This document shows, piece after piece, positions 1,260 to 16,265 of a DNA stretch of 64,000 nt. Below the pieces are notes generated by a model. The model was not told the origin of the DNA. It searched no databases and saw nothing but the letters and a program-made list of their open reading frames with translations. The stretch lies in the NCBI RefSeq assembly GCF_003334765.1, contig NZ_QOWT01000009.1. One strand, written 5' to 3'. A program made the position numbers and the translations under genes. The DNA is from Escherichia coli (GTDB lineage Bacteria > Pseudomonadota > Gammaproteobacteria > Enterobacterales > Enterobacteriaceae). Numbering within the stretch: the stretch's first letter is position 1; each line of letters opens with the position of its first letter.

Positions 1260-1949
1260 ATGAAAAAAATTATCGCATTGATGTTGTTTTTGACATTCTT
1301 TGCCCACGCCAACGACTCCGAGCCTGGCAGCCAGTATTTAAAGGCAGCAGAGGCCGGGGACCGACGCGCACAATATTTTCTTGCCGACAGCTGGTTTAGC
1401 TCCGGCGATTTGAGCAAAGCCGAATATTGGGCACAGAAAGCCGCCGACAGCGGTGATGCTGATGCCTGCGCGCTGCTGGCGCAGATCAAAATCACCAATC
1501 CGGTCAGTCTGGACTATCCACAAGCAAAAGTTCTTGCAGAGAAAGCGGCGCAAGCGGGCAGTAAAGAAGGTGAAGTAACGCTGGCGCATATTCTGGTAAA
1601 TACTCAAGCGGGTAAACCGGATTATCCAAAGGCAATTTCGCTGTTAGAAAACGCCTCGGAAGATCTGGAGAACGACTCTGCCGTCGATGCCCAAATGCTG
1701 CTTGGTTTGATTTACGCCAACGGCGTGGGCATTAAGGCCGACGATGACAAGGCAACCTGGTATTTCAAACGCAGCTCTGCAATTTCCCGAACCGGTTATT
1801 CCGAGTACTGGGCGGGAATGATGTTCTTAAACGGTGAAGAAGGTTTTATCGAGAAGAACAAGCAAAAGGCGCTGCACTGGTTGAACCTGAGCTGTATGGA
1901 AGGGTTTGATACCGGGTGTGAAGAGTTTGAAAAATTAACCAACGGTTAA
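1260..1949 (+). CDS. yjcO: Sel1-repeat protein with N-terminal signal peptide
   Basis: 229 aa ORF; signal-like N-terminus MKKIIALMLFLTFFAHA; repeated Ala/Gly/Trp-rich Sel1-like units; position between fdhF and gltP as in K-12. Confidence 0.85.
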   Translation: MKKIIALMLFLTFFAHANDSEPGSQYLKAAEAGDRRAQYFLADSWFSSGDLSKAEYWAQKAADSGDADACALLAQIKITNPVSLDYPQAKVLAEKAAQAGSKEGEVTLAHILVNTQAGKPDYPKAISLLENASEDLENDSAVDAQMLLGLIYANGVGIKADDDKATWYFKRSSAISRTGYSEYWAGMMFLNGEEGFIEKNKQKALHWLNLSCMEGFDTGCEEFEKLTNG

Positions 1950-1950
1950 G

Positions 1951-2218
1951 ATAGGCCTGATAAGACGCGGCAAGCGTCGCATCAGGCATTGATGTCGGAT
2001 GCGGCGTAAACGCCTTATCCGACCTACAAAATCACGCTAAATCAGGCTATTGCGCTGTCTGGCGTAGGCCTGATAAGACGCGTTAAGCGTCGCATCAGGC
2101 GTTGATGTCGGATGCGGCATAAACGCCTTATCCGACCTACAAAATCACGCTAAATCAGGCTATTGCGCTGTCTGGCGTAGGCCTGATAAGACGCGGCAAG
2201 CGTCGCATCAGGCATTCA
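1951..2218. repeat. BIME/REP array: about 2.3 tandem copies of a ~113 bp unit built from REP palindromes
   Basis: Unit starting aggcctgataagacgcg..cgtcgcatcaggc recurs at 1954, 2066 and 2179; contains gccttatccgacctaca REP motifs. Confidence 0.85.
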
Positions 2219-2253
2219 CACATTGCCGGGTGGATATCCCCGGCAATCTTCAA

Positions 2254-3567
2254 TTATTGATCCGCAGTTTTATCAAATTTGCCCAGCACTTCACGCTCAT
2301 AAGCCAGCGCTTTCTTACGGTCAAATTTGTGTTCCCACTTGGCAATCACCAGCACCGCCAGCGCATTACCCACCACGTTCAGCGCAGTACGCGCCATGTC
2401 GAGGATACGGTCAACACCAGCAATAAACGCCAGACCTTCCAGCGGAATACCTACGCTACCCAGCGTTGCCAGCAACACCACAAACGACACGCCAGGCACG
2501 CCAGCAATCCCTTTCGAGGTCACCATCAGCGTCAGCACCAGAATGATTTCCTGCCAGATGGACAGGTCAATGCCATACAACTGCGCGATGAAGATAGCGG
2601 CAATACTTTGATACAGCGTCGAACCATCAAGGTTAAAAGAGTAACCGGTCGGCACCACGAAACTGGTGATCGACGCCGGTGCTCCGTAGGCTTCCATCTT
2701 CTCAATAATTCGCGGCAGCACGCTTTCAGAGCTGGCAGTGGAGTACGCCAGAATCAGCTCATCTTTCAGAATACGAATCAGGATCCAGACGCTTAACCCG
2801 CACAGGCGCGCCACAATTCCCAGCACTACCAGCGCGAAGAACAGAATGGCGAAATGCACCAGCAGCACCAGTTTCGCCAGTGGCCACAGAGACGAGAAAC
2901 CAAAGTTAGCCACCGTCACCGCAATCAGCGCAAACACACCCACCGGTGCATAACGCATCACCATGTGAGTCACTTTAAACATGGTTTCAGAGATGGAGCG
3001 GAACACGGTCACCAGCGGTTCACGATGCGTCGCGGGCAGGGAAGAAAGCCCCAGACCAAACAGCACCGAGAAAAAGATGATCGGCAGCATTTCGCCTTTC
3101 GCCATCGACGCCACAATGTTCGTCGGCACCAGCGACAAAATCGTGCCCATAATGCCGTGGGAACTGCTTTGTACCGCTTCCGTAGTGCTCTGATATTTCG
3201 AGATATCGACGGTCGCCAACTGCGACATATCCACCCCGGCACCGGGCTGGAAGACGTTCGCCAGAGTGATCCCCAAAATGATGGCGACGGTGGTGATCAC
3301 CTCGAAGTAGATAATGGTTTTCGCGCCAATACGCCCGAGCTGTTTGGCATCACCAACACCCGCGATACCCACCACCAGCGTGGAGATCACAATCGGCACA
3401 ACAATCATTTTAATCAGATGGATGAAGATATCACCCGCCGGAGAGAGCAAATTGACGACCAGCCAGTCGCGGCTGTCGCTATGGTAGTGCAGGTAGCTTC
3501 CCAGGAGAATGCCCAGCACCATAGCAAACAGAATCTGCCAGGCCAGGCTGAATTTTATATTTTTCAT
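2254..3567 (-). CDS. gltP: Glutamate/aspartate:proton symporter
   Basis: 437 aa ORF; dicarboxylate/amino acid:cation symporter sequence recognised as E. coli GltP; length matches. Confidence 0.95.
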   Translation of the reverse strand: MKNIKFSLAWQILFAMVLGILLGSYLHYHSDSRDWLVVNLLSPAGDIFIHLIKMIVVPIVISTLVVGIAGVGDAKQLGRIGAKTIIYFEVITTVAIILGITLANVFQPGAGVDMSQLATVDISKYQSTTEAVQSSSHGIMGTILSLVPTNIVASMAKGEMLPIIFFSVLFGLGLSSLPATHREPLVTVFRSISETMFKVTHMVMRYAPVGVFALIAVTVANFGFSSLWPLAKLVLLVHFAILFFALVVLGIVARLCGLSVWILIRILKDELILAYSTASSESVLPRIIEKMEAYGAPASITSFVVPTGYSFNLDGSTLYQSIAAIFIAQLYGIDLSIWQEIILVLTLMVTSKGIAGVPGVSFVVLLATLGSVGIPLEGLAFIAGVDRILDMARTALNVVGNALAVLVIAKWEHKFDRKKALAYEREVLGKFDKTADQ

Positions 3568-12669: not shown

Positions 12670-12746
<77 letters not shown>

Positions 12747-14972: not shown

Positions 14973-16265
14973 ATGCGCTATAATGGTTTAAATAATATGT
15001 TTTTCCCTCTTTGCCTGATTAACGATAACCACTCTGTCACAAGTCCATCACATACAAAGAAAACAAAATCAGATAATTACAGCAAACATCATAAAAACAC
15101 GTTAATTGACAATAAAGCCCTCTCTCTTTTCAAAATGGATGATCATGAAAAAGTGATAGGCTTGATTCAGAAAATGAAAAGAATTTATGATAGTTTACCA
15201 TCAGGAAAAATCACGAAAGAAACGGACAGGAAAATACATAAATATTTTATAGATATAGCTTCACATGCAAATAATAAATGTGACGATAGAATTACGAGAA
15301 GAGTTTACCTTAATAAAGATAAGGAAGTGTCAATTAAGGTGGTATATTTTATAAATAATGTCACCGTCCATAATAATACTATCGAAATCCCACAGACAGT
15401 AAATGGTGGTTACGATTTTTCACACCTTAGCCTGAAAGGTATCGTGATTAAAGATGAAGATTTATCCAATTCGAATTTTGCAGGTTGCAGACTACAAAAC
15501 GCTATTTTTCAGGACTGTAATATGTATAAAACGAATTTTAATTTCGCCATAATGGAAAAAATACTTTTTGATAATTGTATTCTCGATGACTCAAATTTCG
15601 CTCAGATAAAAATGACTGACGGAACTCTAAATTCATGTTCCGCTATGCATGTTCAATTCTACAATGCAACAATGAATAGAGCCAATATTAAAAATACCTT
15701 CCTTGATTATTCAAATTTTTATATGGCATACATGGCTGAGGTAAATCTTTATAAAGTAATAGCGCCATATATTAATTTATTTAGAGCCGACCTTAGCTTC
15801 TCTAAACTTGATTTAATTAACTTTGAACATGCTGATCTGTCTCGTGTCAACCTGAATAAAGCAACCCTCCAGAATATAAACTTAATTGATAGCAAACTCT
15901 TTTTTACGCGGTTAACAAATACGTTCCTCGAAATGGTTATATGTACCGGCTCTAATATGGCTAATGTTAATTTTAATAATGCCAATTTAAGCAATTGCCA
16001 TTTCAACTGTTCTGTTTTAACAAAAGCCTGGATGTTTAATATCCGTCTCTATCGTGTTAATTTCGATGAGGCTAGCGTCCAGGGAATGGGTATTACCATT
16101 CTCCGTGGTGAGGAAAATATCTCCATTAATAGTGATATCCTGGTAACACTACAGAAATTCTTTGAAGAAGATTGTGCCACTCATACTGGCATGTCACAAA
16201 CTGAGGATAATCTTCATGCAGTCGCTATGAAGATTACTGCAGATATTATGCAAGATGCAGATTGA
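14973..16265 (+). CDS. yjcF: Pentapeptide-repeat protein of unknown function
   Basis: 430 aa ORF in a visibly AT-rich islet; C-terminal two-thirds show A(D/N)LxxxNL-type pentapeptide periodicity (ADLSRVNLNKATLQNINLIDSKLFF...). Confidence 0.8.
   Translation: MRYNGLNNMFFPLCLINDNHSVTSPSHTKKTKSDNYSKHHKNTLIDNKALSLFKMDDHEKVIGLIQKMKRIYDSLPSGKITKETDRKIHKYFIDIASHANNKCDDRITRRVYLNKDKEVSIKVVYFINNVTVHNNTIEIPQTVNGGYDFSHLSLKGIVIKDEDLSNSNFAGCRLQNAIFQDCNMYKTNFNFAIMEKILFDNCILDDSNFAQIKMTDGTLNSCSAMHVQFYNATMNRANIKNTFLDYSNFYMAYMAEVNLYKVIAPYINLFRADLSFSKLDLINFEHADLSRVNLNKATLQNINLIDSKLFFTRLTNTFLEMVICTGSNMANVNFNNANLSNCHFNCSVLTKAWMFNIRLYRVNFDEASVQGMGITILRGEENISINSDILVTLQKFFEEDCATHTGMSQTEDNLHAVAMKITADIMQDAD

Follow-up and report, generated by a model that had tools for sequence, protein, structure and literature searches.

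In the window analysed here, i.e. the whole stretch of 64,000 nucleotides of Escherichia coli DNA, the convergent genes yjcO and gltP are separated by an intergenic spacer of 304 nt (positions 1950-2253), inside which five REP hairpins are present. The first of these REPs starts 2 nt after the stop codon of yjcO, and together they form a tandem array, whose parts are listed in Table 1 along with the flanking genes and the other elements of this kind in the window. The finished chromosome of ML35, the annotation of which was used for the identification of genes, differs from the window at 10 of the 64,000 positions, and within the interval 1500-2700, which includes the array, the two sequences are 100% identical.

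Table 1. Positions in the window of the yjcO-gltP array, its component parts, the flanking genes and the other BIMEs.
Feature	Position	Strand	Basis or remarks
yjcO CDS (Sel1-repeat protein)	1260-1949	+	ORF list and ML35 RefSeq annotation; stop codon TAA at 1947-1949
Z2 REP 1, canonical GCCTGATGCGACGCTTGCCGCGTCTTATCAGGCCTA on the - strand	1952-1987 (36 nt)	-	Pattern match, 0 mismatches
Head-to-head linker 1 (S-type), ATTGAT	1988-1993 (6 nt)		Read from the sequence
Y REP 1, GTCGGATGCGGCGTAAACGCCTTATCCGACCTAC	1994-2027 (34 nt)	+	Pattern match
Tail-to-tail linker 1, AAAATCACGCTAAATCAGGCTATTGCGCTGTCTGGCG	2028-2064 (37 nt)		Pattern match
Z2 REP 2	2065-2100	-	Loop TTAAC (- strand); TGCCG in copies 1 and 3
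Head-to-head linker 2, GTTGAT	2101-2106		Read from the sequence
Y REP 2	2107-2140	+	G-to-A at the loop-closing pair relative to Y REP 1 (GGCATAAAC vs GGCGTAAAC)
Tail-to-tail linker 2	2141-2177 (37 nt)		Identical to linker 1
Z2 REP 3, terminal (the "0.3 copy")	2178-2213	-	Identical to Z2 REP 1
Unique GC-rich hairpin, ATTGCCGGG-N8-CCCGGCAAT	2222-2247		6 nt from the gltP stop codon; outside the repeat
gltP CDS (glutamate/aspartate:proton symporter)	2254-3567	-	ORF list and ML35 annotation; convergent with yjcO
BIME, Z2-S-Y pair	12673-12746		Between acs and yjcH
BIME, Y-Z2-Y cluster	48602-48723		Between lamB and malM
BIME, Y-Z2-degenerate Y	52830-52952		malE-malF
BIME, Z2-S-Y pair	62553-62626		Between pgi and yjbE

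The array was detected by Tandem Repeats Finder at positions 1952-2216 as a repeat with a period of 113, present in 2.3 copies with 95% matches, no indels and a score of 502, and it is the strongest tandem repeat of the 64-kb window. In a repeat search, the copies at 1952-2064 and 2065-2177 showed 96% identity, and a partial third copy of 39 nt (2178-2216) was found to be 100% identical to the first copy, while direct counting gives 4 substitutions in 113 positions between the two full units (viz. at unit positions 19, 20, 37 and 55). When the array is compared with itself at a lag of 113, there are matches at 145 of 152 positions, in contrast to only 32 of 165 at a lag of 100 and about 20-28% at unrelated lags. 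Patterns for the Z2 REP, the Y REP and the 37-nt linker matched the window 3, 5 and 2 times, respectively, where the number expected from 100 shuffles of each is 0, and the three Z2 and two Y copies of the array match these patterns with 0 mismatches. The original prediction had described this spacer as a composite tandem array and not a simple REP pair, with a unit of about 113 bp repeated 2.3 times with few substitutions, and each unit consisting of a REP, a short linker, an inverted REP and a longer closing stretch. The self-match at lag 113 indicates that the repeat is real, the three Z2 and two Y REPs do alternate, and both the order of the parts and the small number of differences between the full units were correctly read. 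The array is also located where it was placed (1951-2218), although its exact bounds are those given above, whereas the stretch following the second REP, which was stated to be about 45 bp, measures only 37 nt.

All of the REPs in the array form strong hairpins on both strands (-17 to -21 kcal/mol, z -4 to -6), and the whole spacer, when compared with shuffled sequences, shows a z of -7 as DNA and of -9 to -11 as RNA. For Z2 REP 1, which aligns with the Z2 half of the Rfam naRNA4 model, the values are -20.4 kcal/mol on the + strand and -21.3 kcal/mol on the - strand (z about -5.7 and -5.9), and for Y REP 1 the value is -19.2 kcal/mol with a z of -5.4. The latter REP contains a paired change that is specific to this locus, viz. 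GTCGG...CCGAC in place of the GCCGG...CCGGC seen in the three other Y REPs matched within the window, and its stem remains intact. The head-to-head linker ATTGAT is, in the Rfam alignment, 7 nt shorter than that of REP325/naRNA4, and the 37-nt tail-to-tail linker folds only weakly (-10 kcal/mol, z -2.15). Of the four substitutions between the units, three affect either a loop or the short linker, and the fourth is the G-to-A change at the loop-closing pair of the Y REP.

The unique hairpin located between the array and gltP (-15.4 kcal/mol on the + strand, -18.1 kcal/mol on the - strand, z about -3.5) is present in every Escherichia allele that was examined, and it may represent a 3'-end structure of the gltP mRNA. 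A U-tract is absent from this hairpin on the gltP strand, and no intrinsic terminators were identified by a terminator scan of the interval 1950-2253. Small changes are seen in the loop and the 3' arm of this hairpin: most B2-like E. coli have an additional CC, and the variants GGGGGATATCCCC and GGATGACC are found in O157 and in E. whittamii, respectively.

A BIME-2 is defined by the presence of Z2 and Y REPs with a short S linker between them, by its occurrence in multiple tandem copies, and by flanking sequences designated as s, l or r. In the yjcO-gltP spacer, REPs of both the Y and Z2 types are present, based on the pattern matches, the Rfam alignment and the hairpin z values noted above, and they alternate in orientation, with the Z2 REPs on the - strand and the Y REPs on the + strand, across S linkers of 6 nt. 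The array is extragenic and is located at 3' ends, between the stop codons of two convergent genes; its copies are in tandem (2.3 in the window, as many as 8 in other genomes) and are joined tail to tail by a locus-specific linker of 37 nt; and the number of its units varies across E. coli from 0 to 8, as has been published for BIME-2. The array is a BIME-2 in which the order inverted Z2, 6-nt linker, Y, 37-nt linker occurs twice and is followed by a closing Z2, and nothing contradicts this identification. A BIME-2 that is locally amplified and variable in size, with presumed roles of its hairpins and of gyrase, is the explanation for the locus as a whole in which we have very high confidence.

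Both the locus and the family to which it belongs have been described earlier, and this information, viz. the BIME-2 nature of the array, its experimental use and the earlier publication of copy-number variation in BIME-2, was absent from the original prediction. A part of the gltP-yjcO BIME from strain MG1655, in the form of the oligonucleotide B319, has served as a cleavage substrate for TnpA-REP (Ton-Hoang et al. 2012; PMC3333891). The MG1655 element is found at the same locus and is built from the same unit, with alternating Z2 and Y REPs, a short head-to-head linker and a longer tail-to-tail linker, but it contains five units and a closing Z2, in contrast to the two units and closing Z2 seen here, and it also differs by a few substitutions.

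None of the four other BIMEs in the window is tandemly amplified, and all of them score above the gathering score of the Rfam naRNA4 model. One of these, the REPs between malE and malF, constitutes the classic case of mRNA stabilisation by REPs. It resembles the yjcO-gltP array in having hairpins of the Y and Z2 types in an untranslated region (3' or intercistronic), with an expected role as a barrier to exonucleases, but differs from it in being located within an operon, as one Y-Z2-Y cluster that has not undergone tandem amplification. Single Y-like REP cores were also identified by a regular-expression scan at 44017-44160, 31152 and 57883, beside plsB/ubiA, tyrB/alr and xylE/psiE, respectively. 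Among the other features of the window, Rfam searches identified the sRNA sraL at 19981-20121 (+ strand, 153 bits), which overlaps the 3' end of soxR with its final 8 nt, and STnc430 at 62338-62487 (+ strand, 72 bits), which is located between yjbE and pgi and adjoins the BIME in this region. A 30-nt tandem repeat of 2.4 copies with 82% match (37598-37668) lies inside the interval 36741-37726, where the ML35 annotation shows a DUF2713 pseudogene with a frameshift. The same annotation shows a frameshifted pseudogene of the SopA family between ubiC and malM (45764-47344) and, following actP, the gene espX5 for a pentapeptide-repeat homologue of T3SS effectors (14973-16265).

The distribution of the array in other genomes was surveyed using a query composed of 600 nt of yjcO and 600 nt of gltP, from which the array was left out, and the length of the spacer was read directly. 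Two samples were examined, the first consisting of 59 E. coli genomes picked at regular intervals from 5,426 complete genomes ranked by similarity, and the second of the best 60 matches, all of which have 1.2-kb flanks that are 100% identical. In the first sample, 22 genomes contain 0 units, 3 contain one, 8 contain two, 1 contains three, 8 contain four and 1 contains five, and in four O157:H7 genomes a single unit with deletions is present. The remainder belong to a second series of spacers, with lengths of 147, 488, 827 and 940 nt, which is typical of phylogroup-B2-like strains and shows one unit in 3 genomes, four in 6, seven in 2 and eight in 1. The intergenic length thus ranges from 77 to 940 nt, corresponding to 0-8 full units, where some of the differences in size may represent collapsed repeats in assemblies based on short reads. 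The sequences that were fetched for each of the size classes are all integer multiples of the 113-bp unit. In about 37% of the sampled strains (e.g. LR-03) there is only a single Z2 at this locus and no Y-Z2 pair.

In the second sample, 48 genomes contain 0 units, 8 contain two and 4 contain four. As the flanks of these genomes are identical, the presence of 0, 2 or 4 units between them indicates that the size of the array changes faster than substitutions accrue in the flanks. A difference of this kind is also seen within K-12, where MG1655 contains 5.3 copies in a spacer of 641 nt (304 nt here), whereas CETR3G40 contains four units; of two identical units lying side by side in MG1655, exactly one is missing from CETR3G40, a loss that may likewise be due to a collapsed repeat. 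The original prediction had suggested that the copy number can vary between strains, which is what these results show for the 59 genomes, and the alternative that it is identical in all strains is false. Variation of BIME-2 copy number from strain to strain had already been published. Its further suggestion of a recombination hotspot also agrees with the behaviour of the array, which, as seen from the five units of MG1655 and four of CETR3G40, is prone to recombination or slippage. In contrast, the proposed use of the array as a strain-typing marker is valid only within clones; beyond these the marker is homoplasic, as arrays of the same size have arisen repeatedly between identical flanks.

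The O157:H7 genomes that were sampled (4 of 4, e.g. MB9-1) have in common a derived allele with one unit, in which a deletion of 12 nt is present inside the linker and the Y REP contains point changes, including one (CCGAC to CAGAC) that disrupts a stem pair. Within this clone, the locus looks fixed.

The 37-nt linker provides information regarding the origin of the unit. Both of its matches in the window are in the array, and it is found in 1,780 of the 5,426 E. coli genomes, from 1 to 6 times in each, in line with the counts of units at the locus. As its occurrence within E. coli is limited to yjcO-gltP, with 1-6 copies per genome, it is not a generic motif. When a degenerate pattern of the linker was searched against the contigs of representative genomes, no match was found in E. 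coli, E. albertii, E. fergusonii, E. marmotae or Shigella, and these representatives may carry alleles in which the linker is absent or variant. The three loci that did match are from Escherichia sp. E1V33, which belongs to a cryptic clade, from E. whittamii, and from one contaminant contig. In E1V33 there are five units between yjcO and gltP, and the last linker passes directly into the unique sequence beside the gltP-proximal hairpin. In E. whittamii the unit is likewise located between yjcO and gltP, and the array begins on Y. In the minimal allele of B2-like strains (147 nt) the linker is joined to the unique sequence on the gltP side, with the last third of the linker being divergent in these strains, and in the lineage of the window the array ends on Z2. 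All of the Y copies at this locus share the private variant GTCGG...CCGAC.

Because this variant of the Y stem is private and the linker is found nowhere else, the array has grown by local duplication of one founding unit, consisting of Z2, S, Y and the adjacent unique sequence. As the same unit is shared with E. whittamii and with a cryptic clade of Escherichia, this founding unit was duplicated in place before the divergence of E. coli and E. whittamii, and the locus is an old one. Since that time, the array has undergone expansion and contraction and presumably also trimming at the edges of the REPs. The third match, contig NZ_JAAIYA010000177.1 (240 nt, coverage 0.53) from the assembly of the myxobacterium Pyxidicoccus caerfyrddinensis, contains two units of the array that are identical to the second unit of the window, a variant which is repeated in K-12 MG1655. 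This contig is almost certainly a contamination from E. coli, e.g. from the prey or from a laboratory strain.

The gain and loss of units would occur mainly by replication slippage or by unequal recombination between the 113-bp direct repeats, and this mechanism is favoured by the loss of a single unit within K-12, which fits with it. The REP-associated tyrosine transposase RayT (TnpA-REP) is a possible contributor by means of strand transfer. If units were mainly gained and lost by the cleavage and strand transfer of single-stranded DNA by RayT, and not by slippage or homologous recombination, then the boundaries of the arrays could be accounted for as well: the registers are lineage-specific, some arrays ending on Z2, others on the linker and one beginning on Y, and these differing ends suggest breakpoints at the edges of the REPs. 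The biochemical work also points in this direction, as TnpA-REP cleaves the linker of the gltP-yjcO BIME in vitro at four sites, which were mapped using B319 (PMC3333891), and it recombines sites composed of iREP and linker into products with added REPs. However, direct repeats of 113 bp that are 96-100% identical are sufficient by themselves for RecA-dependent or slippage events, and the loss in K-12 of one of two identical neighbours is a classic outcome of slippage. The rayT gene was detected in 3,575 of the 5,426 genomes (66%), and activity of RayT on BIMEs in vivo is not reported in the literature examined. Further, TnpA-REP requires the tetranucleotide GTAG for its activity in vitro, whereas in the array of the window the base preceding Z2 REP 1 on the + strand is A and not G, and the sequence here is ATAG. 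A main role of RayT in changing the number of units is considered to be unlikely, and slippage or unequal recombination remains the preferred mechanism. With regard to REPtrons, which are recognized by an adjacent rayT, no rayT is present in the window based on the ML35 annotation, and that of K-12 (247,637-248,134) is located about 4 Mb from the array. The array is a dispersed BIME and not a part of a REPtron.

In terms of function, gyrase cleavage sites are enriched in BIME-2 irrespective of transcription, and the enrichment is stronger for Y than for Z2. By analogy, the binding of gyrase at the array, which the original prediction had proposed, is plausible, and gyrase would act preferentially at the Y REPs, in a region in which positive supercoils accumulate through convergent transcription. 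The hairpins of the array, when transcribed from either side, would act as barriers to 3'-to-5' exonucleases for the mRNAs of yjcO and gltP, and they may also function as partial, Rho-assisted terminators for these mRNAs. Judging from what is seen for related elements, the array would most likely provide two-sided 3'-end hairpins together with a site for gyrase, located where transcription from the two genes converges. On a genome-wide scale, REPs do not measurably lengthen the half-lives of mRNAs, and data on gyrase, Term-seq or half-lives that are specific to yjcO-gltP were not found in the literature examined. A REP located as close to a stop codon as the first REP is here to that of yjcO (2 nt) reportedly stalls terminating ribosomes and lowers translation, an effect which Liang, Rudd and Deutscher are said to have described in 2015.

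Since a single Z2 is all that is present in about 37% of the sampled strains, the array is dispensable, and its additional units, which are likely to be nearly neutral, would have a minor selected function or none at all. In all likelihood, the array is a repeat of a selfish or neutral kind, which is tolerated and partly exploited by the cell. If, instead, the number of units served as a fast-mutating heritable dial by which the read-through of gltP/yjcO, the stability of their 3' ends or the local supercoiling is adjusted, then selection would explain why certain sizes recur between identical flanks, viz. 0, 2 and 4 units in A/B1-like strains and 1, 4 and 7 units in B2-like strains. Such a role is considered to be very unlikely.

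The original prediction had suggested that arrays of this type are candidate binding platforms for IHF. In this case the array would be similar to the RIB/RIP or BIME-1 elements, and IHF would bend the DNA between the paired REPs. A BIME-1 combines Y and Z1 REPs across a long L linker, often with an IHF site, and is present in single copies. The array is similar to BIME-1 and RIB/RIP elements in being intergenic and in having paired inverted REPs, and by our inspection the motif AATCAGGCTATTG, which is one mismatch away from the IHF core consensus WATCAANNNNTTR, is present once per unit in the 37-nt linker. However, the Z1 REP, the long conserved IHF linker and the single copy of such elements are all lacking here, as the partner of Y is Z2, the head-to-head linker is of only 6 nt and the units are tandemly repeated, and the array does not belong to BIME-1. 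Matches with one mismatch to a short degenerate motif are expected to be common, in the B2-type alleles there is a second mismatch (CATCAGGCTATTA), and no exact match to WATCAANNNNTTR is present in the interval 1950-2253. An IHF platform is considered to be extremely unlikely, and this candidate was rejected due to the wrong type of BIME and the lack of an exact consensus in the spacer.

It is just as improbable that the array consists of genes for ncRNAs similar to naRNA4, from which Y-S-Z2 RNAs in the gltP sense would bind HU, bridge cruciforms and compact the chromosome. Two matches to Rfam RF02564 (naRNA4), viz. the Y-S-Z2 pairs with 79.0 and 71.4 bits, are seen on the - strand, which is the sense strand of gltP, and they exceed the gathering score of 59.5; in addition, the 2015 report on this subject dealt with REP325, a BIME-2 of the same build. 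The naRNA4 model itself represents the Y and Z2 pair of this BIME-2. However, as the same threshold is passed by the four ordinary BIMEs elsewhere in the window, such a match indicates the presence of REPs and should not be interpreted as showing a dedicated gene. No promoter-like site is present inside the array, and the pair is missing from the strains (about 37% of those sampled) in which only Z2 is found. In a 2026 preprint, which has an author (S. Adhya) in common with the 2015 work, REP325/naRNA4 do not compact the nucleoid and no REP-REP contacts are seen. REP325, which is located between yjdM and yjdN, and the array are alike in consisting of tandem Y and Z2 pairs with spacers in a 3' UTR, but the head-to-head linker of REP325 is of 13 nt and that of the array of 6 nt, the spacer between the units of the array is specific to its locus, the genes around REP325 are in tandem whereas those around the array are convergent, and the role of REP325 in the nucleoid is now disputed. 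A dedicated sRNA gene was rejected as a candidate, with the RF02564 matches being explained by REP content and internal promoter-like sites being absent. Lastly, there is next to no chance that the 113-bp periodicity is a fortuitous resemblance or an assembly artefact, for which only the general risk of mis-assembly of repeats can be cited, and which is excluded by the Tandem Repeats Finder score, by the 0 matches in shuffled sequences, by the recurrence of integer multiples of the unit in complete genomes from many lineages and in two other Escherichia species, and by the identity of the array in the finished ML35 chromosome.

The identification of the array as a BIME-2 also has a bearing on the resequencing of K-12. 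Near position 4,296,380 of NC_000913.3, which corresponds to 2003-2010 of the window, 2 nt (CG) are missing from the first Y REP of the MG1655 reference (GCGGTAAACGCC vs GCGGCGTAAACGCC), whereas this CG is present in the window, in K-12 CETR3G40 and in all other alleles. A call of "+CG at 4,296,380, gltP/yjcO" with a frequency of 1.0 has been described for an ancestral MG1655 stock (PMC4330922), and a "yjcO-gltP insertion" has been described in 34 of 35 evolved isolates (PMC6120903); both of these calls match the CG that is missing from the reference. A further call in the former study, C-to-T at 4,296,060 with a frequency of 0.33, is likely the result of cross-mapping between units. The recurrent variant calls at gltP/yjcO in the resequencing of K-12 are due to a difference in the reference and to the ambiguous mapping of reads in the repeat. 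The value of the locus as a discovery is small, as BIME-2 arrays, their affinity for gyrase, their effects in 3' UTRs and their polymorphism in copy number are all part of the textbook biology of E. coli. The yjcO-gltP spacer represents a natural series of 0-8 units for the effects of REP number on termination, mRNA decay and gyrase.
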